DNA from: Patescibacteria group bacterium
Lineage (GTDB): Bacteria > Patescibacteriota > Dojkabacteria > GCA-002793355
Length of the DNA stretch: 64,000 nt
Assembly: GCA_016860985.1 (NCBI GenBank)
Contig: BOKM01000001.1
Span: 789,857 to 853,856, forward strand
Reading direction: 5' to 3'
Shown here: one piece after another, positions 5,718 to 25,015 of the stretch
Layout: each line of letters starts with the position of its first letter
Position numbering within the stretch: position 1 is the first letter of the stretch
Notes under the pieces: model-generated
What the model was told of the DNA's origin: nothing
Database searches by the model: none
Seen by the model: the letters and a program-made list of their open reading frames with translations, nothing else
Translations under genes and position numbers: made by a program

Positions 5718-5745
5718 GTCGGCCAATATTGGAATATGAACAAAT

Positions 5746-7030: not shown

Positions 7031-7504
7031 ATGAGAACTACAATTATTCCAGCACAAATAACGACTGTTGAGGACAAGATCGCCGGATCACTTAACATGA
7101 CCCAAATCTTGATCCTCATGTTTCCGGTTCTTTGGACTGCGCTCATCTACATTTTGTTTGCGCCTGCCATGAAACTTGTACCCTACAAACTAGGACTCAT
7201 TGGTGTTGTGATCATGATCTGCTTGATTCTAGTTATTCGAATAAAAGACAAAATAGTAGCTGAGTGGCTTGGAGTGGTACTCAGGTATCAATTCCGTCCG
7301 AAGTACTGGCTTTATAACAAAAACGATACAACCAATCGCATTATTGATATTCCTGACATCCCAGATATTGCCGTTATTAAAAGAAAAACAACAAAGAAAG
7401 CATCTAGTGATCAAAAGACCGAAATAAATATTTCTGACCTTGTTCGTCTCGAGCAATTAATCGACTCAGGCAAGGTAGCCGTTCGTTATCAAATGAAAAA
7501 TTAA
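7031..7504 (+). CDS. VirB3/PrgI-like small T4SS membrane protein
   Basis: Two N-terminal TM helices then a hydrophilic tail; sits immediately upstream of VirB4, as VirB3 does. Confidence 0.4.
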   Translation: MRTTIIPAQITTVEDKIAGSLNMTQILILMFPVLWTALIYILFAPAMKLVPYKLGLIGVVIMICLILVIRIKDKIVAEWLGVVLRYQFRPKYWLYNKNDTTNRIIDIPDIPDIAVIKRKTTKKASSDQKTEINISDLVRLEQLIDSGKVAVRYQMKN

Positions 7505-7508
7505 AACT

Positions 7509-9918: not shown

Positions 9919-9920
9919 CT

Positions 9921-10535
9921 ATGAATCCAAAGCTAGTACTTACACTCTGGTCGTTTCGCAAAGAACTTAAATTCGTCCTCCTCGCATTCTTCACTATCCT
10001 CATGCTCCCTGTCATTGCGGTCATTCTACTGACTCAGGTGGGTATAAATATAATCTCTGACAAACTCGTAGATCAAAATGCCACAACTCAGGCCATTCAG
10101 ATCAAAGATCCAACCACTGGTGAGGTAGTAACGGAAATAAACCCCACCGTTGTCTGGCCAACTAAAGGGATAATTACTCTGGAATTTGCACAATCGAGTA
10201 TGTATCAGGTCTTTCACACTGGCATTGATCTCGCCAGCAAGCTTGATGAACCAGTGAATCCTGCTATGGACGGCACTGTTATTTACGCGGGAGAGATATT
10301 CTGGGGTTATGGCAAGCACGTCATTATTGACCACGGCAATAATGTGATGACCATCTATGCCCACCTAAACAAGATTTATGTCTTTAAAGGCCAAAAGGTG
10401 ACCACCAGCGACGTAATCGGTGGCCAAGGTCAAACTGGCTGGGCAACGGGAGTGCATCTTCACTTTCAGGTGAATGTATATGGCATACCAGTGAATCCAA
10501 GGGTGTTTTTAGATAATAAAACCGCTGCTAAGTAG
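9921..10535 (+). CDS. M23 (LytM-type) metallopeptidase with N-terminal TM; T4SS-associated cell-wall hydrolase candidate
   Basis: HTGIDLA ... IDHG ... TIYAHL ... GVHLHFQ M23 signature; start 3 nt after the VirB4 stop. Confidence 0.75.
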   Translation: MNPKLVLTLWSFRKELKFVLLAFFTILMLPVIAVILLTQVGINIISDKLVDQNATTQAIQIKDPTTGEVVTEINPTVVWPTKGIITLEFAQSSMYQVFHTGIDLASKLDEPVNPAMDGTVIYAGEIFWGYGKHVIIDHGNNVMTIYAHLNKIYVFKGQKVTTSDVIGGQGQTGWATGVHLHFQVNVYGIPVNPRVFLDNKTAAK

Positions 10536-10594: not shown

Positions 10595-10777
10595 ATGGTC
10601 ATGGAAGAACTATTAACATTAAAAGAGGCTGCAAATGTCCTCAAAGTACACCCAAACACCTTGAGGGATTGGGATAAAAAAGGGATACTTAAAGCTGTTC
10701 GGATTGGTATCAAAAAAAGCTTAAGATACCGAAAAGAAGATATAGAAAAATTTATTAGTCACAAAAACGGTAAATAA
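10595..10777 (+). CDS. small HTH DNA-binding protein (excisionase/MerR-like HTH_17)
   Basis: LTLKEAANVLKVHPNTLRDWDKKGILKAVRIG is a typical HTH_17 pattern; first gene of the RM operon. Confidence 0.55.
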   Translation: MVMEELLTLKEAANVLKVHPNTLRDWDKKGILKAVRIGIKKSLRYRKEDIEKFISHKNGK

Positions 10778-10779
10778 CT

Positions 10780-12363
10780 ATGACAAATAACAATCAAAAC
10801 ACTACTAAAGAGCAAGAGCGAGCCGAGCTTCACCGAGCCATTTGGCAAATCGCCAATGACTTACGCGGTAGTGTGGATGGTTGGGATTTCAAATCTTACG
10901 TGTTAGGAATGCTTTTTTATCGTTTCATTAGTGAAAACTTGACTAGCTATATCAATGCCGATGAACGACGATCTGGTAAAAAAGATTTTGATTATGCCAA
11001 ACTAACAGATAAAGAGGCAGAATTTGGAAGAACGGACACGGTAAAAGAAAAAGGCTTCTATATCTTGCCGAGCGAACTGTTTATTAACGTTTGCAAAAAT
11101 GCCAGAAATGACAAAAATCTTAACGAAACTCTATCAAAAGTTTTTACCAACATTGAAAACTCTGCAAAGGGATCAGTAAGTGAAGATGATCTTAAAGGTT
11201 TATTTGCCGATTTGGACGTTAATTCTAGCAAGCTTGGAAACACCGTAGAGCATCGCAATCAAAAACTAGTGAAGATTGTTGAGGCTATTGGTAATCTTCG
11301 CCTTGGTAATTACTCTGACAATACAATCGATGCTTTCGGTGATGCCTATGAGTTCTTAATGACCATGTACGCCTCTAACGCAGGTAAATCTGGAGGAGAA
11401 TTCTATACTCCTCAGGAAGTTAGTGAATTACTCGCGGAGATTACTACTGTTGGCAAGAAAGAAGTTAACAAGGTGTACGACCCTGCCTGTGGATCTGGCT
11501 CGCTCCTTCTAAAATTTGCGAAAGTTTTGGGAAGAGAAAATGTTCGTCAAGGTTTCTTTGGTCAAGAAATTAATCTCACTACCTACAATCTTTGTCGTAT
11601 CAACATGTTTCTACACGACATTAACTACAACAATTTTGACGTAGCTCTTGGCGACACACTTATTGATCCTAAACATTGGGATGATGAGCCATTCGATGCG
11701 ATTGTTTCCAATCCTCCCTATTCGATTAGATGGGAAGGTGATGCTAATCCACTTCTGATCAATGATCCTAGATTCTCACCTGCTGGAGTTTTGGCACCAA
11801 AGAGTAAGGCTGACTTGGCCTTTACAATGCATATGCTTTCGTGGCTTTCTACTAGTGGCACGGCTGCAATAGTCGAATTTCCCGGCGTTCTTTATCGAGG
11901 CGGTGCAGAACAGAAAATTAGAAAGTATTTAATTGACAACAACTATGTGGATACAGTGATTCAACTTCCACCAGATTTATTTTTTGGTACGACTATTGCC
12001 ACCTGTATTATCGTGCTAAAGAAAAGCAAAAAAGATAACAAAATTCTATTCATTGATGCATCGGCCGAGTTTGTTCGTAATGGTAATAAAAATAAATTAA
12101 GTGAAACAAATAGACTCAAAATCTTAGAAGCTTTTACATCTCGATCTGATGCAGAGTATTTCGCCAAGCTAGTTGATAGTAAAGATATCGCAATTAATGA
12201 TTACAACATTGCTGTATCAAGTTATGTAACTGCAGAGGACACTCGTGAAGAAATAAACATCACCGAGCTAAATGCAAAGATTAGCCAAATAGTGTCTAGA
12301 CAATCTGAGTTAAGAAAAGCGATCGATGAAATTGTTGAGGATATTGAAGGTGAAAACACATGA
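10780..12363 (+). CDS. hsdM: Type I restriction-modification N6-adenine DNA methyltransferase subunit HsdM
   Basis: GEFYTPQEV motif, SGS AdoMet motif, NPPY catalytic motif (SNPPYSIRW). Confidence 0.9.
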   Translation: MTNNNQNTTKEQERAELHRAIWQIANDLRGSVDGWDFKSYVLGMLFYRFISENLTSYINADERRSGKKDFDYAKLTDKEAEFGRTDTVKEKGFYILPSELFINVCKNARNDKNLNETLSKVFTNIENSAKGSVSEDDLKGLFADLDVNSSKLGNTVEHRNQKLVKIVEAIGNLRLGNYSDNTIDAFGDAYEFLMTMYASNAGKSGGEFYTPQEVSELLAEITTVGKKEVNKVYDPACGSGSLLLKFAKVLGRENVRQGFFGQEINLTTYNLCRINMFLHDINYNNFDVALGDTLIDPKHWDDEPFDAIVSNPPYSIRWEGDANPLLINDPRFSPAGVLAPKSKADLAFTMHMLSWLSTSGTAAIVEFPGVLYRGGAEQKIRKYLIDNNYVDTVIQLPPDLFFGTTIATCIIVLKKSKKDNKILFIDASAEFVRNGNKNKLSETNRLKILEAFTSRSDAEYFAKLVDSKDIAINDYNIAVSSYVTAEDTREEINITELNAKISQIVSRQSELRKAIDEIVEDIEGENT

Positions 12364-14561
12364 CGGACTTAAAGTTAGACATAAAATTAGAAAATTGTTA
12401 TGGGATTAAGAAGCTTGATCATAAGTTTGATTTTTCAAAATGTCATACCTTTGTAATTTATGCTCCAAACGGTGTGATGAAAACATCCTTTGCAAACACT
12501 TTTAAAGACCTTGCCAGTGCCAAAGTACCCTGTGATCGCATCGACGATTCTCTAACACCGATTTGTGAGGTTTTAGATTGTAGTCAAAATACACAGCCTC
12601 AACCTGAATCAATTTGTGTTATTGAACCATATAACGAGAAAGCATTTGACTCTGAGGGGAAGGTGCTTACACTTCTGGCTAACGAAGAAGTTAGAAAAGA
12701 ATATCTTGGTATCTATTCAGAGTTAGATAAGGAAAAACAGTCATTAATTAAAACTCTTAAAAAAGTTTCAAAAAGTAATAACTGTGAGGCGGAATTAGTT
12801 TCGACTTTCTCAACAAGCAAGGAAAACATTTTTGAAGTTTTACTTAAAATAGTAGATGATTCGCGAAAGTCTACAGAAAAATATGATTTCAAATATAACG
12901 TAGTTTTCGACCCGGCAGGAAAAGTTAAGGATTTTCTAAATGAAAATAAAGAACTTTTTACCCAATACTGTGATAAGTACAATGATTTAATCAGTCATTC
13001 TGACTTTTTCGCCAAAAGTGGCGAAACTGTTTTTGGTACATCGGAGGCAAAAAGTCTTAGTGACTCAGTAAAAGGCAACGAGTTCTTTTCTGCTGGACAC
13101 GGATTAAATATAAAAAAATACGGTAGCATTGGTGACAATAAACGATTCAACGAGATAGTAGACGAAGAAATACAGAAGATATTTAACGATAAAGACCTAA
13201 AAGGTATTTTTGACAAAGTTGAGAAAAAGCTTAATGCAAATCAAACCCTTTCCGACTTCAAAAAATTGATAGAGAAAAATCCGGCACTTGTAGTGAAGCT
13301 TGCAGATTACGAACAGTTTAGGAAAGATGCATGGTTCAGCTTTCTCGGTCAAATTATTAATGAGTTGGATAAATTAGTTGCTTTATACATTAGTAAAAAA
13401 ACAGAGATTGAAGATCTTATTAAAAAGGCGAATGAACAACAGTCGAAGTGGGAGGATGCCATTCAAGAATTCAGCGATCGATTCTTCAATATGCCATTTT
13501 CCCTGAGCATAGAAAATAAATCAGACGCAATTCTGAACACACAAACACCAACAATCTCCTTTAAATTTAAAGGGAAGCCCGTCGACAGAAAGAAGATGAT
13601 TGACGTTTTGAGTCAAGGTGAAAAAAGGGCGTTTTATATATTAAATGTGATTTTTGAAGTTAAGTCACGCCAACTTAGTGGTACAAAAACGCTATTTATT
13701 ATCGATGATATAGCAGATTCATTCGACTACAAGAATAAATACGCTATCGTAGAGTATTTGCATGATATTTCCAGAGATCCAAACTTTTACTCTATAGTGA
13801 TGACCCATAACTTTGATCTGTTTCGGACACTTCAATCCCGAGTGTTACAAAATAATAAATGGACTAATTCGCTCATAGCTGAAAAGGTGGCTGATGAGAT
13901 TCGTTTAGTTGATGCTGGAAGTAAAAATATTACTGATCCTTTCTCTTTGTGGAAAAGGGACGTTCACAGTAACGAAAAATACCTTATTGCTTCGATTCCT
14001 TTTGTTCGCAATTTAATCGAATATAAAGATAGTCAAAATATCAGCTATCGTCTATTAACTCACGCACTTCACCAAAAAATGGCAGACCCCGTAAATAGTA
14101 TTAAAGCAACAGACGATATTTCTATAAGTGACTTGGAGCCTATTTTTTTAAGTGTTTTGTCAATCTCGCCTTTTACATATACAGACACATCTAAAAAAAT
14201 TATTGATATTATCGACAAATTGACTACAGATATTGTCAGTGCAGCAGACTCGGATTCAATAGTACTTGAGGATAAAATAATTCTGGCAATTGGATCTAGA
14301 TTGAAAGCTGAAAAATATATGTGGTCTAAGGTAACAGATCAGTCTGAAATTTCTGGAAATCAAACAGGATTATTATTTCGAAGATTTAAAGATGAATTTG
14401 CTAGTGACCAAAGCTACAAAGACAAAATTCGAATACTTGAAAATGTCAACATTATGACTCCAGAAAACATACACCTGAACTCTTTTATGTACGAGCCGAT
14501 CTTAGATATGTCGATAGACGAGTTAAAGCATTTATATGGTGAGGTCAGTAAATTAAATTAA
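12360..14561 (+). CDS. ABC/SMC-type ATPase with degenerate Walker A and long coiled-coil insert (PrrC/RloC- or OLD/PARIS-like topology), embedded in the Type I RM operon
   Basis: N-terminus LDIKLENCYGIKKLDHKFDFSKCHTFVIYAPNGVMKTS parallels the SbcC/Rad50/OLD N-terminus (GPNGSGKST replaced by APNGVMKTS); about 300 aa coiled-coil; ABC signature-like LSQGEKRAF; Walker B LFIIDDI; H-loop-like THN; about 250-aa C-terminal domain of unknown function; start overlaps the hsdM stop (ATGA). Confidence 0.5.
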   Translation: MTDLKLDIKLENCYGIKKLDHKFDFSKCHTFVIYAPNGVMKTSFANTFKDLASAKVPCDRIDDSLTPICEVLDCSQNTQPQPESICVIEPYNEKAFDSEGKVLTLLANEEVRKEYLGIYSELDKEKQSLIKTLKKVSKSNNCEAELVSTFSTSKENIFEVLLKIVDDSRKSTEKYDFKYNVVFDPAGKVKDFLNENKELFTQYCDKYNDLISHSDFFAKSGETVFGTSEAKSLSDSVKGNEFFSAGHGLNIKKYGSIGDNKRFNEIVDEEIQKIFNDKDLKGIFDKVEKKLNANQTLSDFKKLIEKNPALVVKLADYEQFRKDAWFSFLGQIINELDKLVALYISKKTEIEDLIKKANEQQSKWEDAIQEFSDRFFNMPFSLSIENKSDAILNTQTPTISFKFKGKPVDRKKMIDVLSQGEKRAFYILNVIFEVKSRQLSGTKTLFIIDDIADSFDYKNKYAIVEYLHDISRDPNFYSIVMTHNFDLFRTLQSRVLQNNKWTNSLIAEKVADEIRLVDAGSKNITDPFSLWKRDVHSNEKYLIASIPFVRNLIEYKDSQNISYRLLTHALHQKMADPVNSIKATDDISISDLEPIFLSVLSISPFTYTDTSKKIIDIIDKLTTDIVSAADSDSIVLEDKIILAIGSRLKAEKYMWSKVTDQSEISGNQTGLLFRRFKDEFASDQSYKDKIRILENVNIMTPENIHLNSFMYEPILDMSIDELKHLYGEVSKLN

Positions 14562-14567
14562 GCAAAT

Positions 14568-15764
14568 ATGACTAAGCATCAAAGCAGAATAGACCAATTA
14601 ATCACAGAGCTCTGTCGAAATGGCGTGGAATTTAAAGAGTTAGGTGAATTAGGTTATTTTTATGGAGGTCTAACAGGAAAAAGCAAAGAAGATTTTAGTA
14701 ACGGTACGTCAAAATATGTTTCCTATATGAATGTGTATTCAAACATATCTGTAAATATCGAGATTGAGGACTTTGTAAAACTAAATTCCGATGAAAAACA
14801 GAATGCAATTGAATATGGTGATATTTTATTCACTGGTTCATCTGAAACCCCTGATGAATGTGGAATGTCTTCCGTACTGACGACAAAATTATCAGAACCG
14901 TTATATCTAAACAGTTTTTGTTTTGGTTTTCGACTTAACGATGTATCTTTATTTAATCCTGAATTTCTCAAACATCTTTTTAGAGGCAATTATGTCAGAA
15001 AACAGATTGCTAATACCGCAAGTGGCGTTACACGATTTAATGTATCAAAAAAACGTTTTGCAAAAATAAAAATTCCTGTTCCACCACTTGAAATCCAAGA
15101 TGAAATTGTAAATATTCTTAATAAGTTTACAGAGCTAGAATCAGAGCTAGAATCAGAGCTAGAAGCGAGAGTAGAACAGTATGAGTACTATAGAGAAAAT
15201 CTGCTGGATTATAATGCCAATGTTGAACATAAAACTCTTGGTGATTCTTTTTCTATGTTAGCGGGCCATTTCATTTCGGCGAACAATATATCAAATAATC
15301 AAGATGATATTAATCAATATCCCTGCTTCGGTGGCAACGGATTTCGTGGTTATGTGAGCAAAAAAAGTCATGAAGGGAGATATGTGTTGATTGGTAGGCA
15401 GGGTGCTCTTTGTGGGAATACAAAACGTGTTGATGGCAAATTTTATGCGACTGAGCACGCAATTGTGGTTACTCCTAAAAACGACATAGATATTAATTGG
15501 GCATTTCATATGCTGACATATATGAATCTCAACAAATATGCATCAAAATCAGCTCAGCCAGGTCTCGCTGTTGGAAATCTTGAAAAAGTAATGATTAAAG
15601 TACCAAAATTGAGTGAGCAAAGAAGAATTGCGTCAATACTGGATAAATTTGATTCTCTAGTTAATGACATTACAATCGGCCTACCAGCCGAACTTAATGC
15701 CAGACATCAACAATACGAGTATTATCGAAATAAATTGCTAACATTTAAAGAATATGTCGGATAA
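14568..15764 (+). CDS. hsdS: Type I RM specificity subunit HsdS (two target-recognition domains)
   Basis: Two TRDs separated by central conserved helix (LESELESELEARVEQYEYYRENLL) and C-terminal repeat of the same helix (ARHQQYEYYRNKLL). Confidence 0.85.
   Translation: MTKHQSRIDQLITELCRNGVEFKELGELGYFYGGLTGKSKEDFSNGTSKYVSYMNVYSNISVNIEIEDFVKLNSDEKQNAIEYGDILFTGSSETPDECGMSSVLTTKLSEPLYLNSFCFGFRLNDVSLFNPEFLKHLFRGNYVRKQIANTASGVTRFNVSKKRFAKIKIPVPPLEIQDEIVNILNKFTELESELESELEARVEQYEYYRENLLDYNANVEHKTLGDSFSMLAGHFISANNISNNQDDINQYPCFGGNGFRGYVSKKSHEGRYVLIGRQGALCGNTKRVDGKFYATEHAIVVTPKNDIDINWAFHMLTYMNLNKYASKSAQPGLAVGNLEKVMIKVPKLSEQRRIASILDKFDSLVNDITIGLPAELNARHQQYEYYRNKLLTFKEYVG
15132..15167 (+). repeat. 12-bp tandem repeat (GAGCTAGAATCA x2 plus one imperfect copy) inside the hsdS central conserved region
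   Basis: Direct reading; encodes (ELES)2-ELEA. Confidence 0.8.
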
Positions 15765-18700
15765 CAAACATACATACTACAACATGGTCGCGCAAGGCTC
15801 AGAGAGCACTGTGGTGGCTGAATATACTCGAGATGCAAATATGGTACGCGACGTTGGCTACCAAAGTGAGAATGATCTTGAGCAAACATTCATTAAACAA
15901 CTTCAATCTCAGGCATACGAATACGTTTCTATAAAATCCGAAGCAGATTTAATAGCAAATCTTAGACGACAACTAGAGAAGCTTAATAACTATTCCTTCA
16001 GTGATGGTGAGTGGGAAAAGTTTTTCGTTAGCACACTAGCTAACCCTAATCAAAGCATTGTCGAAAAAACCATCACTATTCAAGAAGATTACATTAAGAA
16101 CCTCACTCGCGATGATGGATCAATCAAGAACATTTATCTCATCAAAAAAGACAATATTCACGATAATTTTTTGCAGGTTATTAATCAGTATGCGACTGAG
16201 GATGGGCAACGCTCTAACCGTTACGATGTCACTGTCTTAGTCAATGGCCTCCCATTGGTTCATATTGAACTAAAACGCCGTGGAGTCGCCATTCAGGAAG
16301 CTTTCAACCAGATAAATAGGTATAACCGTGAGAGTTTTTGGGCTTCATCTGGACTCTTCGAATATGTGCAGATTTTTATCATCTCAAACGGTACTCATAC
16401 CAAGTACTACAGCAACACTACCCGCGCCCAGCATGTAAAAGATTCTAGTGAGGGTTCAGCCAAAGTAGGTAAGCGAACCAGTAACAGCTTTGAATTTACG
16501 AGTTGGTGGGCAGATGCTACTAATCGCCCAATTACCGATCTAATGGACTTTGCCAAAACCTTTTTTGCCAAACACACCATTCTCAATATCCTGACTCGCT
16601 ACTGTGTATTTACCACCGATAAGTTGCTTTTGGTGATGCGCCCATACCAAATTGTGGCTACTGAAAGGATTCTAAATAGGATCGAGGTCAGTACCAATTA
16701 TAAAAAAATGGGAACTGTCGAGGCTGGCGGATATATCTGGCATACCACTGGATCAGGAAAAACACTTACCAGCTTTAAAACCGCCCAGTTAGTCAGCAAG
16801 CTTATTGATATTGAAAAAGTAATCTTTGTGGTAGATCGTAAAGATCTGGACTATCAGACCATGCGTGAGTACGACAAATTTGAGAAAGGGGCGGCTAACA
16901 GCAATACCAGCACCGCGATTCTTACGAAACAACTAAGTGATCCAAATGCTCGAATCATAGTCACTACAATCCAGAAACTTGATCGATTTATTAGTCGCAA
17001 TGGTCAGCATGCTATTTTTGATGGTCATGTAGTGCTCATTTTTGACGAATGTCATCGTTCTCAATTTGGCGATATGCATGCCGCCATAACCAAAGCATTC
17101 AATAATTATCACCTGTTTGGATTTACCGGCACGCCAATCTTTGCCATCAACTCTTCATCAGGAGGTCGTCCCGACTTTAAAACCACAGAGCAAGCGTTTG
17201 GTGAAAAGCTTCACACCTACACCATAGTCGATGCTATTGCAGATAAGAATGTTTTACCGTTTAAAGTTGACTACATTTCTACGGTTCGTGAAGCCGAGGA
17301 TATTGAAGATAAAAAAGTGAATGATATCGACCGCGAAGCTATCCTCTCAGCGCCTGAGCGAATATCAAATATTGTCAAATACATTCGTGAACATTTCGAT
17401 CAAAAAACGAAGAGAAATAGTTACTACAAAATAAAAGATCGTCGCCTGGCAGGATTTAACTCAATATTTGCAGTTGCTTCCATTGATGTCGCTAAGAAAT
17501 ATTATTCGGAGTTTAAGAAGCAATTAGAAGGTCTCCCAAGCGACAAACAACTCAAAGTAGCCACTATTTATAGTTTTGGTGTGAACGATGAAGATCTTGA
17601 TGGAATGATCGATGAGAACTCAGAAGATACTGCAGGCCTTGATGTGAGCTCACGCGATTTTTTGGAGAGCGCAATTTCCGACTACAACAGGATGTTTGGG
17701 ACTTCCTACGATACCTCATCCGACAAGTTCCAAAACTACTACAAAGATGTGAGTGAGCGAGTTAAAAACCGAGAAATAGATATCTTGATTGTGGTAAACA
17801 TGTTTTTAACAGGATTTGATGCAACTACGCTCAATACACTTTGGGTCGATAAGAATTTGAGGCTACATGGTCTTCTTCAAGCTTTCTCCCGCACCAATCG
17901 AATACTTAACAGCGTAAAAACGTTCGGTAATATTGTGTGCTTCCGCAACCTAGAAAAGGCTACCAATGAGTCGATCGCCTTGTTTGGTGATAAAGAAGCC
18001 AGTGGTATCGTGTTATTGAAAGCTTATGACGACTACTATCACGGATATAAGGATGGAGATAAGGAAGTCCGTGGCTATGAAAGCTTAGTTAAGGAATTAC
18101 TAGAGAGATTCCCTGTTGGTGAGCGAATACTCGGAGAACAGAACCAAAAAGATTTCGTAAAGTTATATGGAGCAATTTTGCGAGTCCGTAATATATTGTC
18201 TACCTTTGACGAATTTGCTGGTAACGAAATACTAAGCGATCGCGACGTACAGGATTATCACAGTGCCTATATCGATATTTACAATGAATTCCGTAAGTCT
18301 AAAAAAGAAGAAAAGGAAAATGTTAATGAAGATGTAATTTTTGAAATGGAGCTTATCAAGCAAGTCGATATAAATATCGACTATATTCTTGGATTGATTA
18401 AGAAATATCATGAGGATCACACTAAGAACAAAGAATTATTGCTCGATATTAACAAGGCAATTGATTCAAGCGTTGAGCTTCGTAACAAGAAAGATTTAAT
18501 CAACCAGTTTATTGCCTCATTGGATATTCATTCGGTCGTTGATGATGATTGGCAAAAATTTATTGAAGGCAAGAAGGTTGAAGAACTCGAGTCCATAATT
18601 GAATCAGAAGGATTGGATCACGATGCAACATACACCTTTATCAAAAACGCATTCCGTAATGGAAACGTAACAACAACTGGTACTGCAATTACAAATATTT

Positions 18701-18813
18701 TACCTCCTGTATCCCGCTTTTCCCCGACTGGTGAGCGAACAAAAAAGCGTGAGAGTGTGATTGATAAATTGACTAGATTTTTTGAAAGATTTTTCAACAT
18801 ATCTAGTTCTTAA
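15754..18813 (+). CDS. hsdR: Type I RM restriction subunit HsdR (SF2 helicase/endonuclease)
   Basis: Walker A TGSGKT, DECH box (IFDECHRSQFG), helicase C-terminal motifs, 1019 aa; start overlaps the hsdS end. Confidence 0.9.
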   Translation: MSDNKHTYYNMVAQGSESTVVAEYTRDANMVRDVGYQSENDLEQTFIKQLQSQAYEYVSIKSEADLIANLRRQLEKLNNYSFSDGEWEKFFVSTLANPNQSIVEKTITIQEDYIKNLTRDDGSIKNIYLIKKDNIHDNFLQVINQYATEDGQRSNRYDVTVLVNGLPLVHIELKRRGVAIQEAFNQINRYNRESFWASSGLFEYVQIFIISNGTHTKYYSNTTRAQHVKDSSEGSAKVGKRTSNSFEFTSWWADATNRPITDLMDFAKTFFAKHTILNILTRYCVFTTDKLLLVMRPYQIVATERILNRIEVSTNYKKMGTVEAGGYIWHTTGSGKTLTSFKTAQLVSKLIDIEKVIFVVDRKDLDYQTMREYDKFEKGAANSNTSTAILTKQLSDPNARIIVTTIQKLDRFISRNGQHAIFDGHVVLIFDECHRSQFGDMHAAITKAFNNYHLFGFTGTPIFAINSSSGGRPDFKTTEQAFGEKLHTYTIVDAIADKNVLPFKVDYISTVREAEDIEDKKVNDIDREAILSAPERISNIVKYIREHFDQKTKRNSYYKIKDRRLAGFNSIFAVASIDVAKKYYSEFKKQLEGLPSDKQLKVATIYSFGVNDEDLDGMIDENSEDTAGLDVSSRDFLESAISDYNRMFGTSYDTSSDKFQNYYKDVSERVKNREIDILIVVNMFLTGFDATTLNTLWVDKNLRLHGLLQAFSRTNRILNSVKTFGNIVCFRNLEKATNESIALFGDKEASGIVLLKAYDDYYHGYKDGDKEVRGYESLVKELLERFPVGERILGEQNQKDFVKLYGAILRVRNILSTFDEFAGNEILSDRDVQDYHSAYIDIYNEFRKSKKEEKENVNEDVIFEMELIKQVDINIDYILGLIKKYHEDHTKNKELLLDINKAIDSSVELRNKKDLINQFIASLDIHSVVDDDWQKFIEGKKVEELESIIESEGLDHDATYTFIKNAFRNGNVTTTGTAITNILPPVSRFSPTGERTKKRESVIDKLTRFFERFFNISSS

Positions 18814-18822
18814 GGAGAATAT

Positions 18823-20082
18823 ATGAAAAAAATTAAAGTTAGCATTCAAGATGAAAATACACTCATCCTCCTTGAGGATGCCCAAAAAGGCGATCTCATC
18901 GATCTCAAATCTATTCATGAGGCTGATATTGATAAATCTTCAATTGAGTCACTCATCAAATCTATCAAAACCTCGGAATTTAATGCCCAGCTCGAAGCTG
19001 CGAAGCAAAATATTGCTAAACAGAAGGAGCTAGAGGCTGAGATTAAAACAAAGGATATCGTCACCAAAAAGAATGAAGAATTGGCAAAAAAAGATCAGGA
19101 AATTACTACTCTCAACACCAAAATCGAAGGAATAGCTAAACAAGTTGAATCCGATGCGAAAGTAAAGTTACTTGAGGAAAAACAAGCAATTGAGGAAACC
19201 TATCGACAAAAACTTACTGACAAAGATACAGAAATCCAAGAAATCAAACATCAGAAAGAGTTAAGCGAGCAAATATTGCAGGATAAACTCAAGGCAAGCG
19301 AGACATCACTTGTGTCTTTAAAAGAAATGCGATCCCGCATGAGCACCAAAATGATTGGAGAATCTCTTGAGGTTCATTGTGAAAATGAATTTAATAAACT
19401 CCGCCCGCTAGCTTTCCCAAGGGCTCAATTTGGTAAAGATAATGCTGTTTCATCATCTGGTTCAAAAGGTGATTATATTTATCGTGAGTACGACGACGAT
19501 GGCAACGAGATATTGACCATCATGTTTGAGATGAAGAATGAAGATGACTCGACGGCAACCAAGCACAAAAATAAAGACTTTTTTAAGGAACTAGATAAGG
19601 ATCGCCGTGAAAAGAATTGCGAGTATGCGGTTTTGGTGAGTTTACTGGAGAAAGACAACGAGTATTACGATGATATCGTCACCGTCTCTGACTATCCTTT
19701 GATGTACGCAATTCGCCCTCAACACTTTATTACGATTATCGGCTTTTTGCGCCAAGGGAATCTAAAATCACAGGAGTTGCAGAGAAAAATTCAAATTCTC
19801 AAGAATCAAAACATTGATGTAACCAACTTTGAGGCCAACATGAACGCTTTTAAAGATGCGTTCTCAAGAAATTATAACCTTGCGTCAGACCAATTTAGTA
19901 AAGCCATCGAAGAAATTGATAAAACAATTGATCACCTGAATAAGGTAAAAGAAAACTTACTTAAATCTGATAATAATTTGAGATTAGCCAATAACAAAGC
20001 GTCAGAACTTACAGTTAAAAGATTGACAGCGAATAGCCCTAGTGTGGCAAAGGCTTTTGAGGAAAGTGATAAACAACAATAA
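18823..20082 (+). CDS. coiled-coil protein with C-terminal PD-(D/E)xK nuclease-like domain (DUF2130-like)
   Basis: About 170 aa of coiled-coil, then GDYIYREYDDDGNEILTIMFEMKNE, which fits a D...ExK restriction-endonuclease fold. Confidence 0.4.
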   Translation: MKKIKVSIQDENTLILLEDAQKGDLIDLKSIHEADIDKSSIESLIKSIKTSEFNAQLEAAKQNIAKQKELEAEIKTKDIVTKKNEELAKKDQEITTLNTKIEGIAKQVESDAKVKLLEEKQAIEETYRQKLTDKDTEIQEIKHQKELSEQILQDKLKASETSLVSLKEMRSRMSTKMIGESLEVHCENEFNKLRPLAFPRAQFGKDNAVSSSGSKGDYIYREYDDDGNEILTIMFEMKNEDDSTATKHKNKDFFKELDKDRREKNCEYAVLVSLLEKDNEYYDDIVTVSDYPLMYAIRPQHFITIIGFLRQGNLKSQELQRKIQILKNQNIDVTNFEANMNAFKDAFSRNYNLASDQFSKAIEEIDKTIDHLNKVKENLLKSDNNLRLANNKASELTVKRLTANSPSVAKAFEESDKQQ

Positions 20083-20084
20083 AT

Positions 20085-20858
20085 ATGATTCAAAATTCAT
20101 TTAAATCCATTGCAATCAAGATAATCACCGAAGCTGGCAAACCCCTCCATTATCGAGAGATTACTAGGATAGCAACTGAACAGGGATTGCTCAAAACAGA
20201 TGGTAAAACTCCATGGGCAACCATGAACGCTCAGCTTTCAATGGATATTGTTAACAATGGCGAAAATTCTCAATTTTATAGAGCTCAGCCAGGATATTTT
20301 GGCTTACGAGAGCTTGGAGTCACTACTACATCAACGATTAAAAAATCATTAACCTATGTTGTAGCCAAGCATAAAGTAACTGATTCTCTCAATACCAAGC
20401 AAAAAGGTGATATTGCGGAAGCTAGAGTTGCAGAATTGCTCACACTCTACGGTGATGAGGGCTTAAGCTGTTACCGCCCAATTAGTGATGATGAGGGTAT
20501 CGATATTATCGCTAAGCGTCGTGAAAAACTTGAAGTCGCATATATCCAAGTCAAATCCAGTTACGGATATAAAGATCGAGGTTTTGTTTCCTCGGTTAGA
20601 GAAAAGCAAATTGTCAACAAAGAACGTATGATTTTAGTTTTTGTTTATTTTGACCTCTCAGAAGGCGATTTATTTGACCAAGTATTTTGTATCCCCGCCC
20701 CAGACTTCTTGCAACTGACTGCAAATGAAGATAAAAAGCCCGGGGAGCGTGTCTTCACTGTTGGGCTACGTAACCCTGATAAATCTAAATATGCTGAGTT
20801 TATGATCGAGAAGCGAGAGCTTGCGAATCGAATTATTGAAATTATGGATAAACTGTAA
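20085..20858 (+). CDS. HARE-HTH domain fused to Mrr-like PD-(D/E)xK restriction-endonuclease catalytic domain
   Basis: N-terminus SIAIKIITEAGKPLHYREITRIATEQGLLKTDGKTPWATMNAQLSMDI matches HARE-HTH; C-terminus DDEGIDIIAKR ... AYIQVKS matches the Mrr_cat GDGGIDG ... QCK motifs. Confidence 0.6.
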   Translation: MIQNSFKSIAIKIITEAGKPLHYREITRIATEQGLLKTDGKTPWATMNAQLSMDIVNNGENSQFYRAQPGYFGLRELGVTTTSTIKKSLTYVVAKHKVTDSLNTKQKGDIAEARVAELLTLYGDEGLSCYRPISDDEGIDIIAKRREKLEVAYIQVKSSYGYKDRGFVSSVREKQIVNKERMILVFVYFDLSEGDLFDQVFCIPAPDFLQLTANEDKKPGERVFTVGLRNPDKSKYAEFMIEKRELANRIIEIMDKL

Positions 20859-20860
20859 AT

Positions 20861-21694
20861 ATGAAATTATTAATAATTGGCGCTACTTCATATATCGGAT
20901 CACGCCTAGTTTTCGATCTACAAGACGAAAATGGTGTTGTGGGCACATACCATTCAAACAATACAATTTCACCAAATTTTATCCATGTAGATATTAGGGA
21001 CAGGCAATCTATTGATAAATTGGTCGCTGACGTTAATCCAGAGGTGGTTGTGCATCTAGCAAACTACTCAAGCTCCAGGCAAATAAAAGGCAATGAGGTA
21101 GATTTTCCAAAACTAAATCTTGAAGCAACCATCAATATTGTTGAAGTGCTAAATAAATATGAGAAACCCTTAATATTCTTTTCTTCTATGGCTGCTACTA
21201 CAAAGCAGGATCTTTATGGAGAACTCAAAGCAAAATCTGAGGAAATCGTCAAAACGGTAAAAAAGGGATTTGCGATTGTCCGCCCATCTGCGGTGATCGG
21301 GCTTAGTCCGGTACAATCACATAACAAAATCACAGACAAAATCCTCTCCGTTATAAACGGCCAAACCCAGGAATTTGATAATTCATGGATATTACAGCCA
21401 ACCTACATCGGACACCTATCCCAGGTGATTGAACAGATCGTTTTAAAGGGAATCTGGAATGAAGAATTTAATATATTTACGGACTACCCAGTGACACAAT
21501 ATCAGATCGCAACTGATATTCTTCAGAAATTTGATCTGAAAGCCAACCCCATTGATACTGGAAGAGTTGTTCCTTTGGCTAAGATTGATGACCAAAAGAT
21601 GAAGCTATTTAAACTTTCGCCGGCGTCGTATAAAGAAATTATCGATCGGATAGTATCTGAACTTAAAAATCCATTACTATTCCAGATTAACTAA
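20861..21694 (+). CDS. NAD(P)-dependent SDR-family epimerase/reductase (RmlD-like)
   Basis: Rossmann IIGATSYIGSRL and catalytic YGELK (YxxxK). Confidence 0.6.
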   Translation: MKLLIIGATSYIGSRLVFDLQDENGVVGTYHSNNTISPNFIHVDIRDRQSIDKLVADVNPEVVVHLANYSSSRQIKGNEVDFPKLNLEATINIVEVLNKYEKPLIFFSSMAATTKQDLYGELKAKSEEIVKTVKKGFAIVRPSAVIGLSPVQSHNKITDKILSVINGQTQEFDNSWILQPTYIGHLSQVIEQIVLKGIWNEEFNIFTDYPVTQYQIATDILQKFDLKANPIDTGRVVPLAKIDDQKMKLFKLSPASYKEIIDRIVSELKNPLLFQIN

Positions 21695-21714: not shown

Positions 21715-21918
21715 ATGGCACCGAATAAAATTGGCAAAAAACTAAAAGACGCACGAAAGAAGCTTGGCCTCAAGCAGTCTGATGTGGCTGAAAAAGCAGA
21801 TATCAGTGTCAATTATTATGCTCGCATTGAGCGTAATGAAGAAAATCCTACCTTAGAAACCTTGGAACGTGTATTGAAGGCACTGAAACTTAAATCCTCG
21901 GATGTACTCTCGTTTTAA
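21715..21918 (+). CDS. XRE-family (Cro/CI-type) HTH transcriptional regulator
   Basis: LKQSDVAEKADISVNYYARIERNEENPTLETLERVLKAL. Confidence 0.75.
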   Translation: MAPNKIGKKLKDARKKLGLKQSDVAEKADISVNYYARIERNEENPTLETLERVLKALKLKSSDVLSF

Positions 21919-22157
21919 TCCTTCTTAAGCTTGATCGGATCAATTTTCCCGGATTGTTCATCTTCTACAATTTTGTGAGCGGCCATGTGAGCCAAGGCAG
22001 CTTTTTCCTCAAGATGTTTGATTGCATCTTCTCTAGTGCATGGCAAGTTCTGAGTTTTCAGGAATCGAATGGTTGTCTCGATATCTGCCTCACTAATTTG
22101 ATAACCTGAATTCTGTGTCATATGGTCGAAGTATAGCATTTTATATGTATCTCCCAA
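21915..22157 (-). CDS. hypothetical 80-aa protein, last gene of the minus-strand PLD module
   Basis: Start overlaps the PLD-gene stop by 17 nt. Confidence 0.3.
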   Translation of the reverse strand: MGDTYKMLYFDHMTQNSGYQISEADIETTIRFLKTQNLPCTREDAIKHLEEKAALAHMAAHKIVEDEQSGKIDPIKLKKD

Positions 22158-22587
22158 AATTCAAAAAATTAAACATATCTACGGCGAAGCCGCCGCCATC
22201 CAGGCGGCGCATAATTTCCCTGCTTTTTACTTGTGACAGGATATTCAAACTGCCTTCCCAAAGTATCTTTCGGTCAATTATTGCCAGTTTTCGGTGATGG
22301 TTGCCGACACAAAGAAAAACTTGAATTCCCAGGGCTTCTAGAGCCTCTATTTCGCTCTCGGATTGGACTTCGTAGCCGTCACTGTGATCATTTGGATCGC
22401 GAGTGATGATATAGACTTTAATTCCCTTGGAGTAGGCTCGCCTTAGACTTGGCCAGAGCATTTTCATTCGGCTTGAGGTGATAAATGGACTTTCGATGAT
22501 TATTTCTTCTGTAGCTTGGTCTAGATCCCTCAAGAAGGCTTTATAAAACGACTTTTCATCATGGAGTGCGGAGCTATAGTTATTCAT
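22141..22587 (-). CDS. single-HKD phospholipase-D-family nuclease (Nuc-like)
   Basis: HKD motif GNHHRKLAIIDRKILWEGSLNI (HxK(x)4D ... GSxN); 148 aa like dimeric Nuc endonucleases. Confidence 0.7.
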   Translation of the reverse strand: MNNYSSALHDEKSFYKAFLRDLDQATEEIIIESPFITSSRMKMLWPSLRRAYSKGIKVYIITRDPNDHSDGYEVQSESEIEALEALGIQVFLCVGNHHRKLAIIDRKILWEGSLNILSQVKSREIMRRLDGGGFAVDMFNFLNFGRYI

Positions 22588-23359
22588 GGCTCACCTCCAT
22601 ATTATCAATAAATACGATCTGACCATCTACCTCTTTGATCCCGAGTTCATCCAGTTTATAATACGTCCTTATAACACTGTCGAATAAGGGTTCCACCTGT
22701 GAGACAGTGAGCTCGTATTTTGCGTACCCCGAATTCTTGCCTTGTTTAATGTCATGGTAAAGCTGACCCAAACAAGTCGAAAGTTTTCCACTGTTTGAGG
22801 CTGGTCCAATAACTAGTACCAATGGCGCATTTGTTTCAATAAACTCATCTTTTTCGTACCCTAGTGGACCCACAGCAGCTTTAGGGTCTGGGTATCCGTC
22901 GATTATGTATCTATATGCAACTTGAACTTGCGAATCGCGTAACTTTGTTGCAAACGAACTAAGTTCGGAGGTAACATCACGAACCATATTAATAGCGACC
23001 GAAAATTTTACTGGAAAGGTTTCCTGGTACTCTTTCATTATTCGCCAAATAGCATCGAGATATGCCTCGTTATGATTATTAAGCATTCTATTGTTTTGAA
23101 TATCTTCGGCATTCACGCAGAACAGCAACTCGTATGGGGTGTTGATATTTTTTACAATTTCGGGCTTCACACTTGGATTGAACCCAGGCAAAACTCGTTG
23201 TGCGTGGGGGTCGTAAAGAAATTTGCCACCAATTTCGAGATACAGAGTGCCTCCTTTAAACTTCTCTAAACGTTTAGTTAAAGCCTCTTGCTGTAGCATT
23301 AGGTATTTCTGGTTGTCAAAACCAAGTTCTTTGTGTTCGATTATTTCCGTTGAGTTCAT
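22580..23359 (-). CDS. hypothetical 259-aa protein, first gene of the PLD module
   Basis: ORF with stop overlapping the PLD start; Rx4H (RMLNNH) HEPN-like motif present but not diagnostic. Confidence 0.35.
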   Translation of the reverse strand: MNSTEIIEHKELGFDNQKYLMLQQEALTKRLEKFKGGTLYLEIGGKFLYDPHAQRVLPGFNPSVKPEIVKNINTPYELLFCVNAEDIQNNRMLNNHNEAYLDAIWRIMKEYQETFPVKFSVAINMVRDVTSELSSFATKLRDSQVQVAYRYIIDGYPDPKAAVGPLGYEKDEFIETNAPLVLVIGPASNSGKLSTCLGQLYHDIKQGKNSGYAKYELTVSQVEPLFDSVIRTYYKLDELGIKEVDGQIVFIDNMEVSHE

Positions 23360-23373: not shown

Positions 23374-24435
23374 CTACGCCTCGAGTATTTGTGAATAATT
23401 CCCAAAAAGCATTACTACTCTATCTATTCCGAGGGCATTGCCGCTGCAGGCAGGTAGTCCGTGTTTTAGTGCGTCAACAAACTCCCAATCATAGGGATAA
23501 TTAGTCTTGTTCTTTGCTTCTTCGATTTTCGCAATTTCTCTTTCGAATGCTGCTTTTTGCAGATTTGGATCTGTGTTCTCTGTATAAGTATCGCAAATTT
23601 CAAGCCCTGCAATCATTACCTCAAAACGCTCTGCCCATACATTTCCTTTCACTTTTTCCCCGTTTTTTGGCTTTGCCAAAGGAGAAAGCTCGTGTGGGTA
23701 ATCGTAAAGAATAACTGGTTTAGTTGGGTCAAGTTCTGGTTCTATATAGGTAAGAAGGATTTGGTTAAACAATTCTTCCCATGTCGTGTTAGCCGTTACC
23801 GTAATGCCGAGTTCTGGCCTATTTGCCAGTATTTCTCCGAATTGTTTCACAGAAAAAGCACCAGTAGACTCATCCCACGTTTGCTCCAAATCAATGGATG
23901 TAAATTGCTTGAACGCTTCGTTGATGCTCAGACGAAGCCAGGGAGTTGAGAGAGTTACGGTATGTTCTCCAAATGGGATTGTTCCTTTTGGAGCAAACTC
24001 AGCTGCCAAGGCGGTAAATAACTCTTCTGTTGTTTGCATCACATTCTCGTAGTTGCTACCCTGTTCGTACCACTCAAGCATTGAAAACTCACTTAAGTGT
24101 TTGCCTGAGAGCGGCTCACCATTTCGAAAGCTTCTGGTAATGGCAAAATTGCTTCCAAAACCTGCTGCAAGTAACTTCTTTTGAAATGCCTCAGGTGAAG
24201 TCATCAGGTACTTCTTTTGCTCAATTTTACCTTCTAGCCCGATACGTTTTTCGGTGGTCTCAAATATATCGAGATAAGATTCAGGGATTAACGCGTTGTT
24301 CAGAATGGGAGGTTCAACTTCGAGTAAACCCTTTTCAGCAAAAAAACGTCGGATTACGGATATGATATTCAGTTTTAACAAATACTGCGCTTTAAACTCT
24401 GGCGAGTTTATGATTGAGGAAAAAAACGTTTGCAT
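23374..24435 (-). CDS. epmA: EF-P-(R)-beta-lysine ligase EpmA (GenX/PoxA, truncated class II LysRS paralogue)
   Basis: Class II aaRS motif 2 FRNGEP and motif 3 GNALGIDRVVML; about 350 aa; adjacent to efp. Confidence 0.75.
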   Translation of the reverse strand: MQTFFSSIINSPEFKAQYLLKLNIISVIRRFFAEKGLLEVEPPILNNALIPESYLDIFETTEKRIGLEGKIEQKKYLMTSPEAFQKKLLAAGFGSNFAITRSFRNGEPLSGKHLSEFSMLEWYEQGSNYENVMQTTEELFTALAAEFAPKGTIPFGEHTVTLSTPWLRLSINEAFKQFTSIDLEQTWDESTGAFSVKQFGEILANRPELGITVTANTTWEELFNQILLTYIEPELDPTKPVILYDYPHELSPLAKPKNGEKVKGNVWAERFEVMIAGLEICDTYTENTDPNLQKAAFEREIAKIEEAKNKTNYPYDWEFVDALKHGLPACSGNALGIDRVVMLFGNYSQILEA

Positions 24436-24451
24436 TATTGATGTTGCAAAC

Positions 24452-25015
24452 TTATTCTGTTGCTCTACCTTGATAAGTTCCGTAATACGGATCTACCTTA
24501 ATTTTTTCACCAATGTCGACAAATAATGGAACTTGAACCGTTGCTCCGGTTTCGAGTACTGCTTCTTTGGTTGCGTTTGTAGCGGTATTGCCACGAACAG
24601 CTGGAGAAGTTTCGGTTACTTCGAGAGTTACCTGTGCGGGGAACTTAATTGAGATTGGTTGTTCGTTATAGATAATAAGAATGTAGTCGCTACCAGCCTT
24701 CATGTATTGCAAGTAGGTGTCAATCAAGCTGTTTGCCAAAGTAAATTGCTCGTAGGTGTCAGGGTCCATGAAGGTAGAGTTGTTTGTGTCGCTAAAAAGG
24801 AATTGCATTGTTTTAAAATTGACGTCTAGTTCTTCCACTCTTTCGCCTGATTTGAAGGTAAAGGGAATTACTCGGTTTGTGTTAAGGTTCTTCATCTTTA
24901 CGCGGGTAAAAGCGGAACCTTTTCCTGGTGAGTAAAACTCTGCATCGGTAATATAGTATGGCTCATTATTAAACATGATAAACATGTTCTTTTTAATGTT
25001 GTCTGTTTGTGCCAT
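24452..25015 (-). CDS. efp: translation elongation factor P
   Basis: N-terminal KOW-like domain with the modified-lysine loop SPGKGSAF; 187 aa. Confidence 0.9.
   Translation of the reverse strand: MAQTDNIKKNMFIMFNNEPYYITDAEFYSPGKGSAFTRVKMKNLNTNRVIPFTFKSGERVEELDVNFKTMQFLFSDTNNSTFMDPDTYEQFTLANSLIDTYLQYMKAGSDYILIIYNEQPISIKFPAQVTLEVTETSPAVRGNTATNATKEAVLETGATVQVPLFVDIGEKIKVDPYYGTYQGRATE

Follow-up and report, generated by a model that had tools for sequence, protein, structure and literature searches.

A DUF2130 gene and a HARE-HTH endonuclease-fusion gene behind hsdR in a Type I R-M operon on a Patescibacteria conjugative element

Gene content of the locus

The stretch of DNA analysed here (64,000 nucleotides, in the following "the window") stems from a Patescibacteria (CPR) bacterium and contains a Type I restriction-modification (R-M) operon, which is cargo of a T4SS conjugative element. 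As listed in Table 1, the operon is tightly packed and runs in the order HTH_17, hsdM, PDC-S46 ATPase, hsdS, hsdR, DUF2130, HARE-nuclease and SDR. An earlier note on this DNA had placed two open reading frames directly past hsdR, and both were confirmed, gene 1 (DUF2130) starting 9 nt after the hsdR stop and gene 2 (the HARE-nuclease) 2 nt after gene 1. The protein kinds of both genes have previously been described by computational analysis; an informative model for either of them was not found in PADLOC, NCBIfam and PHROGs.

Table 1 Features of the R-M cargo in the window.
Feature	Position	Strand	Profile evidence
HTH_17 (MerR/excisionase-like) small DNA-binding protein, operon gene 1	10595..10777	+	PF12728 E 3.9e-13
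hsdM, Type I methyltransferase	10780..12363	+	PADLOC MTase_I E 7.9e-130; HsdM_N + N6_Mtase
733-aa ABC/SMC-like ATPase, PADLOC candidate PDC-S46	12360..14561	+	PDLC05023 E 1.5e-235
hsdS, Type I specificity subunit	14568..15764	+	PADLOC Specificity_I E 5.7e-93
hsdR, Type I restriction subunit, EcoR124-type C-terminus	15754..18813	+	PADLOC REase_I 1185.9 bits
DUF2130 gene (gene 1), 419 aa	18823..20082	+	PF09903 E 7.7e-75
HARE-HTH + PD-(D/E)xK endonuclease fusion gene (gene 2), 257 aa	20085..20858	+	
HARE-HTH winged-helix domain of gene 2, residues 5-77	20097..20315	+	PF05066 E 1.1e-18
I-Ssp6803I/Hjc-like PD-(D/E)xK nuclease domain of gene 2, residues 103-257	20391..20855	+	
Gene 2 catalytic candidate E112	20418-20420		
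Gene 2 catalytic candidate D140	20502-20504		
Gene 2 catalytic candidate Q155	20547-20549		
Gene 2 catalytic candidate K157	20553-20555		
SDR/RmlD-like reductase gene	20861..21694	+	RmlD_sub_bind E 1.6e-18, Epimerase E 2.9e-17
HTH_3 (Xre-type) regulator, backbone gene closing the cargo slot	21715..21918	+	PF01381 E 3.8e-16

The HTH_17 gene also heads the R-M cargo in three further loci (L007, L161, L163) and is located upstream of the HARE-nuclease gene in four others (L008, L010, L035, L071). The ATPase gene, which is embedded between hsdM and hsdS, matched phrog_38705 (E 4.7e-135) and, weakly, SMC_N/RecF; no mention of PDC-S46 was found in the literature search. For the hsdR product the domains HSDR_N, ResIII, SWI2_SNF2, T1R_D3-like and EcoR124_C were identified. 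At the other end of the cargo the SDR gene starts 2 nt past the HARE-nuclease gene and is missing from the equivalent position in the element variants L007, L161 and L163. The HTH_3 gene, which closes the slot, adjoins an M23 peptidase gene in locus L003, where the slot is empty. Alignment of the cargo-slot junctions across the element variants revealed no att-like repeats, and a tRNA scan of the window revealed no tRNA gene as a possible mark of an integration site. In a promoter and terminator scan the signals of the operon were not above those of shuffled sequences, so that nothing speaks for transcription starting or ending internally between hsdR and the two genes.

The DUF2130 protein and its neighbourhoods

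The assignment of gene 1 to DUF2130 held: its match to PF09903 (251.9 bits, residues 149-403) exceeded the gathering cutoff of 26.7 bits and covered profile positions 5-254 of 255. According to a low-confidence AF2 model the protein consists of N-terminal beta hairpins (1-27), a helix/coiled coil (51-197), a predicted PD-(D/E)xK core at about 198-300 with D217, E236 and K238, and C-terminal helices (334-418). The coiled coil that had been read from the sequence is thus present, its length being about 150 residues rather than 170, because one unbroken helix is predicted at 51-197. Furthermore, the motifs GDYIY (with D217) and FEMK, which had been proposed as nuclease core, belong to a conserved PD-(D/E)xK-type signature (E, D, ExK), as at least 95% of 73 homologues (median identity 47%) share E180, E183, D217 and E236-M-K238. 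The N-terminal motif EIKCPxCG, found in 60 of the 73 members examined, is lacking in the Patescibacteria clade. DUF2130/COG4487 forms group 109 of the PD-(D/E)xK superfamily of Steczkiewicz et al. 2012, where its function is given as unknown (PMC3424549), and gene 1 is a full-length member.

Searches against PDB sequences returned apolipoprotein-type coiled-coil noise only for the DUF2130 profile, and designed PPR repeats, matched via low-complexity helices, for the single sequence; a TIGR03981 match was far under its cutoff and spurious. In RmuC, which limits recombination at inverted repeats, a coiled coil is likewise followed by a PD-(D/E)xK nuclease. DUF2130 exhibits the same layout, and both are mostly solitary genes. 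RmuC is also listed in the superfamily (PMC3424549). A relationship between the two was nevertheless rejected, since a profile of 55 sequences aligned with E. coli RmuC at an hhalign probability of 0.2%, and the likeness is therefore regarded as an analogy and not as membership.

The neighbourhoods of DUF2130 genes are variable and mostly non-defence. R-M genes were found upstream in only 2 of 71 homologous loci, and DUF2130 is no general R-M companion. A few element variants differ from the rest of the family by having DUF2130 within an R-M operon: in the window, L002, L007 and L161 hsdR is followed by DUF2130 and then by the HARE-nuclease gene at gaps of 2-10 nt, and L010 retains the DUF2130/HARE-nuclease pair. 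Operons that are just as close (L162, L163/L164, L011, L005) lack DUF2130, the loci L003 and L080 carry it but no HARE-nuclease gene, and 80 metagenome DUF2130 loci yielded no match to the HARE-nuclease. At the window locus DUF2130 is an optional insert. The family was found on conjugative plasmids of the plasmid collection and not in the phage collection.

The HARE-nuclease and its linkage to R-M operons

The N-terminus of gene 2 is a HARE-HTH domain, as had been proposed; its match to PF05066 (67.8 bits), named 'HB1, ASXL, restriction endonuclease HTH' in Pfam, passed the cutoff, and the fold is a winged helix like that of the N-terminal domain of RNA polymerase delta or of ASH2L. The motifs DEGIDII and IQVK, on which the earlier note had based an Mrr-type nuclease, are present (D140, Q155, K157). 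However, the match to Mrr_cat (PF04471; 17.1 bits against a cutoff of 21, E 0.006) stayed below threshold and was restricted to residues 132-160, Mrr_cat_2 reached 15.1 bits against a cutoff of 22, and past the catalytic motif no profile or structural similarity to Mrr was detected, so that Mrr_cat membership was rejected. A higher, borderline score just under the cutoff was obtained for PDDEXK_5 (PF11645; 24.2 bits against 26.1, E 3.7e-5), for which a precomputed match exists in about half of the HARE-nuclease homologues listed. In the fold search I-Ssp6803I came out on top, with matching catalytic residues. The nuclease domain is nearest to I-Ssp6803I/PDDEXK_5, the BisI family and Hjc, and only the D..QxK motif is common to it and Mrr_cat. 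Neither the single sequence nor the full-length profile matched any PDB sequence, and the best match of a C-terminal-domain profile was 2ost (E 0.57). In PHROGs only phrog_5018, of unknown function, was retrieved, and no match was found in 50,697 phage and 72,556 plasmid records.

The residues E112, D140, Q155 and K157 are invariant in 43 full-length homologues and also where the nuclease domain occurs alone or in other fusions, which indicates that reader and nuclease are separate modules, as is the case for Type IV enzymes. At E 1e-3 or better the homologues comprised 1846 cluster representatives. Gene 2 hence combines an intact nuclease domain with a fused DNA-binding, reader-like domain, the arrangement expected of a Type IV enzyme.

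Fusions of HARE-HTH with restriction-endonuclease folds were reportedly described by Aravind and Iyer in 2012. Gene 2 shares this two-domain architecture and the location at the tail of defence operons that are based on DNA modification. Fusions beside Dnd and BREX have been predicted to be modification-discriminating or backup nucleases (PMC10853773, PMC12839542), whereas the partner of gene 2 is a Type I system and those of its homologues include Type III and PLD-SNF2 systems; its nuclease of the I-Ssp6803I/PDDEXK_5 type and its host, a Patescibacteria conjugative element, also differ from those described. In the literature HARE-HTH is proposed, by prediction only, to read base modifications, probably of cytosine, while one paper records adenine as well as cytosine proposals. 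A biochemically characterised fusion was not found in the literature search. I-Ssp6803I (PDB 2OST; PDDEXK_5, PF11645) is a homing endonuclease without HARE-HTH (PMC3424549), in contrast to the R-M-operonic gene 2. In the BisI family (NhoI, Eco15I) the nuclease domain itself reads methyl groups within GCNGC, whereas gene 2 carries a separate, fused reader-like domain; a relationship at the sequence level was not detected, and the QVK variant of the QxK motif is identical in the 5mC-dependent NhoI (PMC11347163). The immigration control region of E. coli (hsdRMS-mrr-mcrBC) likewise has a Type IV gene, mrr, beside hsdR, and its motif GIDG...VQAK has D...QxK in common with GIDI...IQVK of gene 2. 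However, mrr is divergently transcribed and not co-operonic, while gene 2 belongs to the same operon as hsdR.

The earlier note had suggested a coupling to the Type I system; a linkage to R-M was found for gene 2 and not for DUF2130. R-M genes were detected within the three genes upstream of the HARE-nuclease in at least 27 of 55 loci, a conservative procedure which left about half of the loci without detected R-M, compared to 4 of 51 downstream (Fisher p 3.5e-6) and to the 2 of 71 loci of DUF2130 (p 3.5e-10). The linkage persists among homologues below 50% identity (17 of 40), which come from unrelated taxa and lie outside the element of the window. The upstream neighbours are mostly co-directional (47 of 55) with a median gap of 5 nt, and in L162 the HARE-nuclease gene overlaps hsdS by 20 nt. 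Such a tail position in R-M operons agrees with a restriction-type activity associated with R-M. In sampled element variants the gene adjoins the conserved backbone genes HTH_3 and PLDc_2, and a part of its local synteny is therefore positional.

A coupling specific to Type I could not be sustained, since the gene also follows Type III and PLD-SNF2/Eco57I systems; the link is to R-M in general, and a conserved co-occurrence with hsdR, hsdM and hsdS, as expected of a Type I component, was seen neither for the HARE-nuclease nor for DUF2130. Of 52 immediate upstream neighbours 11 contain ResIII, as do 8 further genes at positions 2-3, and SNF2-PLD proteins occur as well. Helicase-free partners are AlwI, GmrSD, AbiEii and Eco57I/MmeI single-chain (IIG-like) enzymes. 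Close relatives (65-95% identity) stand behind Type I operons of differing families and gene orders (L161, L162, L163, L007, L011), the HsdR/HsdM sets being only 24-27% identical beside HARE-nucleases of 80-95% identity. In three Legionella loci (L048, L052, L063) the gene is accompanied by a divergent Xre regulator only, which argues that it can work alone. Among 292 neighbours no C5-methyltransferase motif was found, and all 18 methyltransferase motif matches of upstream neighbours were of the amino-methyltransferase type (NPPF/Y/W or DPPY/F). From the motifs, these neighbours are compatible with a reader of cytosine modification, but no proof of one.

Interpretation and significance

We favour, at roughly even odds (about 0.5), the reading that the HARE-nuclease is an endonuclease linked to R-M, of Type IV-like or backup character and probably self-sufficient, and that DUF2130 is an unrelated passenger nuclease. 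Both genes would then ride independently of each other at the tail of a Type I R-M operon which is itself cargo. The winged helix of gene 2 would bind DNA and tether the I-Ssp6803I/Hjc/BisI-like nuclease domain, whose putative site E112, D140, Q155-x-K157 would use a divalent metal for DNA cleavage. In many bacteria genes of this family habitually take the final, closely spaced position behind presumably adenine-methylating, mostly ATP-dependent R-M systems; the HARE-nuclease would thus be expressed together with them and may act as a second line against DNA that they cannot restrict, the adenine-methylated host being spared. Gene 1 is probably a DNA-processing nuclease from a large, mostly solitary family of chromosomes and conjugative plasmids; in a Patescibacteria lineage it may have been inserted between hsdR and the HARE-nuclease gene without a general tie to R-M. 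DNA cleavage, an anti-phage role and any modification dependence are what we infer, the last from the role proposed for HARE-HTH.

Unlikely in our view is that the HARE-nuclease is no independent Type IV enzyme and instead a dependent accessory, recruited or activated by ATP-driven translocating R-M enzymes and cutting, for example, at stalled or collided translocases or when an anti-restriction protein blocks the R-M enzyme. The identified upstream partners are mostly helicase-containing R subunits (ResIII, SNF2-PLD), a leaning which could signal functional dependence, the spacing is very tight or overlapping, and the nuclease fold resembles the structure-specific resolvases Hjc and RecU. Yet helicase-free partners exist, the Legionella copies have nothing but the Xre regulator, and the diversity of the partner families, as seen in the HsdR/HsdM sets, is too great for a specific protein-protein interface. 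A bolder reading, which we also regard as unlikely, would make the HARE-HTH/PDDEXK_5 nuclease an unrecognised class of tail-gene effector functionally wired to ATP-dependent R-M of any type, which might be licensed, for instance, by blockage of a translocating restriction enzyme or by hypermodification of its target. The conserved frame of HTH_17 and HARE-nuclease genes around an exchangeable R-M module would then constitute a modular defence cassette spreading on CPR conjugative elements.

That neither gene serves defence, the HARE-nuclease being a selfish homing-like or backbone gene and DUF2130 an element maintenance or recombination nuclease, and that a shared cargo hotspot alone accounts for their position beside R-M genes, appears quite improbable: R-M genes are enriched in one direction (upstream, same strand), also around distant homologues outside the element, the gene lies outside any intron or intein, the junctions showed no conserved target in their flanks, and the phage and plasmid records contained no match. 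Highly doubtful is an integrated multi-nuclease system with hsdRMS in which DUF2130 and the HARE/Mrr-like protein provide a Type IV arm for the Type I enzyme. The conserved gene order in the window and three further loci and the pair in L010 speak for it; the close operons lacking DUF2130, the DUF2130 loci without a HARE-nuclease (those of the metagenomes included), the scarcity of R-M genes upstream of DUF2130 and the failed Mrr_cat membership speak against it.

For annotation, the label 'Mrr-like' of gene 2 is corrected to 'I-Ssp6803I/PDDEXK_5-like', and DUF2130 should not be taken as an R-M component. The HARE-HTH domain also occurs in the chromatin proteins ASXL and ASH2L and in the delta subunit of RNA polymerase. 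Should the HARE-nuclease turn out to be a restriction enzyme of the modification-reading or backup kind, a prokaryotic HARE-HTH effector would have been tested for the first time, as far as the literature searched shows, with a bearing on the long-standing prediction that this domain reads modified DNA. The mobile elements and the immunity of Patescibacteria are poorly known, and the locus documents layered defence cargo on their conjugative elements, comprising a Type I R-M system, an embedded ATPase and tail nucleases.

Layout of the operon and its cargo slot

The two open reading frames which the earlier note had reported directly downstream of hsdR were recovered at the same positions and encode proteins of 419 and 257 amino acids, here termed DUF2130 and HARE-nuclease. 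As outlined in the table, they occupy places six and seven in a close-packed co-directional block, DUF2130 starting 9 nt past the hsdR stop and the HARE-nuclease gene 2 nt past DUF2130. In a consensus scan, sites resembling promoters or terminators were not enriched within the block, and the G+C content was 0.32–0.37 over 12–20 kb versus about 0.40–0.43 in the flanks.

Features of the operon and its surroundings (positions in the window)
Feature	Position	Strand	Remark
Element backbone, left	1318–10535
HTH_17	10595–10777	+
hsdM	10780–12363	+
733-aa ATPase	12360–14561	+	ABC/SMC-like
hsdS	14568–15764	+
hsdR	15754–18813	+
DUF2130	18823–20082	+
DUF2130 residues 1–31	18823–18915		hairpin
HARE-nuclease	20085–20858	+
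SDR/RmlD-like reductase	20861–21694	+
Element backbone, right	21715–22587
Xre-type HTH_3 gene	21715–21918	+	after block
DUF1846/PRK13663-like ORF	22580–23359	-	259 aa
EpmA/PoxA-like paralogue, EF-P	23374–25015	-

The operon is preceded by a conjugation module comprising Replic_Relax, two T4SS pilins, a PrgI-like protein, a VirB4-like ATPase and an M23 peptidase. Those homologues that carry a name in their sources point to Patescibacteria (Woesebacteria, Beckwithbacteria, Pacebacteria). The right side of the element backbone carries HTH_3, a small ORF and PLDc_2 (Nuc-like). In a related element (locus L003) HTH_3 and PLDc_2 come immediately after the M23 gene, leaving the M23/HTH_3 junction empty; the block 10595–21694 is therefore the content of a cargo slot. 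This junction is a cargo hotspot. Other variants contain at this site HTH_17, then a Type I system of another family or gene order, and then the HARE-nuclease: hsdM-S-R with 24–27% identity to the window's genes in L007, an AAA_15 ATPase instead of the PADLOC candidate PDC-S46 in L161 (seen at its right-hand end, which is as in the window), and hsdR-M-S followed by an AAA_15 ATPase in L163. The window, L002, L007 and L161 carry DUF2130; L163 lacks it. No att-like repeats were found at the slot junctions and no tRNA gene in the window.

The 733-aa ATPase, whose gene overlaps the hsdM stop by 4 nt, matches PDC-S46 (E 1.5e-235) and phrog_38705, with no Pfam family above cutoff. In its position it resembles the guards of PrrC/RloC type that sit inside Type I loci; a different ATPase (AAA_15/AAA_21, 462–488 aa) occupies the hsdM/hsdS slot in L080 and L161 and lies just after hsdS in L163. 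Within the defence operon, 2 nt separate the HARE-nuclease stop from the SDR/RmlD-like sugar-nucleotide reductase gene, which the other element variants examined do not have at that place. A Lactococcus plasmid likewise has rfbC two genes from its DUF2130 gene (L167), probably by coincidence. The match of the DUF1846/PRK13663-like ORF is confined to the first 207 of 494 profile positions, so that this ORF may be truncated; its neighbours are an EpmA/PoxA-like lysyl-tRNA synthetase paralogue and EF-P, with which ordinary chromosomal genes resume.

Domain content of the two proteins

Residues 5–77 of the HARE-nuclease match HARE-HTH (E 1.1e-18), in agreement with the earlier note. The Mrr-like C-terminus described there holds as a motif observation and fails as a family label: hhalign against E. 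coli Mrr covers a 25-column motif only (1.4% probability), and Mrr_cat (17.1 bits, cutoff 21) ranks behind PDDEXK_5, the best Pfam match of this half (24.2 bits, cutoff 26.1). The family label should therefore be I-Ssp6803I/PDDEXK_5-like. In the good AF2 model (pLDDT 82.3, pTM 0.81) a disordered linker (79–94) connects two domains. E112, D135, D140, Q155 and K157 are invariant across 43 full-length homologues, and vary little or not at all where the nuclease domain stands alone or is fused differently. The Q-x-K form of the final motif has been reported for NhoI and Eco15I (PMC11347163) and aligns with QVKS of I-Ssp6803I in the top, non-significant PDB profile match. Among distant relatives, P0267, P0280 and P0306 carry 6–8 tandem HARE-HTH repeats in 750–1100 aa, and in P0355 and P0376 the same nuclease domain is preceded by another kind of N-terminal domain, about 110 residues long.

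Residues 149–403 of DUF2130 match PF09903 (E 7.7e-75), a family listed within the PD-(D/E)xK superfamily with no function assigned (PMC3424549). Across 73 homologues from metagenomes (median identity 47%), the previously noticed GDYIY (D217) and FEMK (E236-M-K238) are each kept in at least 95%, and likewise E180 and E183. The AF2 model was poor (pLDDT 62.2, pTM 0.30) because only homologues of at least 80% identity were supplied. It shows short N-terminal strands, a single helix 51–197, long C-terminal helices and a core of strands 201–206, 217–223 and 229–235, helix 253–264 and strand 294–297; as modelled, this succession would be the order expected for a PD-(D/E)xK core. No profile similarity to RmuC was detected (hhalign against the E. 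coli protein, 0.2% probability), and PDB profile searches returned coiled-coil noise only. An N-terminal EIKCPxCG motif occurs in 60 of the 73 members and is missing from the Patescibacteria clade, where a cysteine-free KVSIQDENTL..ED hairpin replaces EIKCPxCG..F.VDE.

Genomic neighbourhoods

The HARE-nuclease comparison started from 74 loci retrieved from species-representative genomes, mostly of Patescibacteria, with Legionella (among them the cultured L. fairfieldensis), Omnitrophota, Saganbacteria and others. Restriction-modification (R-M) genes were detected conservatively, with a simple gene caller, iterated HMMs built from the window's HsdR, HsdM and HsdS and an amino-methyltransferase motif. 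An R-M component was found within three genes upstream at no fewer than 27 of 55 loci, versus 4 of 51 downstream (Fisher p 3.5e-6), and the upstream signal was observed in 17/40 homologues below 50% identity. The upstream neighbour is co-directional in 47 of 55 cases, with a median gap of 5 nt. Neighbouring Pfam families include ResIII/SWI2_SNF2/HSDR_N, Methylase_S, N6_Mtase, Eco57I, MmeI_Mtase, N6_N4_Mtase, D12 methyltransferase, GmrSD and AlwI, and other defence genes (SduA_C, AbiEii, SIR2_2, PIN) are also found. Loci checked singly contain Type III systems (N6_N4 Mod plus ResIII Res; L035, L071, L012) or a PLD-SNF2 helicase-nuclease (L008, L039), followed in L008 by an Eco57I-like methyltransferase. 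Methyltransferase motifs were of the NPPF/Y/W or DPPY/F form; the 292 neighbours contained no C5-cytosine methyltransferase motif. In Legionella, a divergent Xre regulator is the sole partner detected in L048, L052 and L063; L053 has hsdM-like genes just upstream as well.

An HTH_17 gene (57–68 aa, MerR/excisionase-like) repeatedly opens operons ending in the HARE-nuclease (window, L007, L008, L010, L035, L071, L161, L163), whichever R-M type lies between (Type I, Type III or PLD-SNF2/Eco57I), which suggests that interchangeable R-M modules sit within a conserved frame.

At 80 metagenome loci of DUF2130, R-M components were found in 2/71 upstream and 2/67 downstream sets, most neighbours being metabolic or unrelated, and none of the 80 had a HARE-nuclease match. 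The few defence links comprise a Type I system (L080), GmrSD/HNH (L003, L086), neighbouring BrxC-domain (BREX) proteins in two cases and, on a Lactococcus plasmid, a nearby C5-methyltransferase/PLD R-M system and TrlF ATPase. DUF2130 occurs on conjugative plasmids; none was found in the phage collection.

Proposed roles

The association of the HARE-nuclease with R-M operons, as their tail gene, is genuine. The great diversity of its partners, the joining of its nuclease domain to varied N-terminal domains and the loci with a regulator as only partner argue for a self-sufficient enzyme and not a subunit; a dependent accessory of translocating R-M enzymes is a live rival. A Type IV-like or backup endonuclease, directed at DNA refractory to the resident R-M system and putatively modification-dependent, would be compatible with the putative reader-plus-nuclease design, with the likeness to an enzyme family dependent on cytosine modification and with neighbouring methyltransferases that are apparently adenine-directed. 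The same role has been predicted for HARE-HTH/REase fusions beside Dnd and BREX systems (PMC10853773, PMC12839542). In the classic arrangement of E. coli K-12 a Type IV gene also lies beside hsdR (mrr adjoins it, with mcrBC nearby), although mrr, unlike the HARE-nuclease of the window, is not co-operonic with hsdR. DUF2130 is best regarded as a predicted coiled-coil nuclease independent of the R-M system, its gene having entered between hsdR and the tail gene in a single lineage of the element.

Both proteins are of kinds already described by computation; public annotations read 'hypothetical protein', 'DUF2130 domain-containing protein' or 'Holliday junction resolvase-like predicted endonuclease', and PADLOC has no model for either. 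This analysis adds a quantified, directional link between the HARE-HTH/PDDEXK_5 subfamily and R-M operons of the Type I, Type III and PLD-SNF2 kinds, and the finding that conjugative elements of CPR bacteria carry this subfamily.
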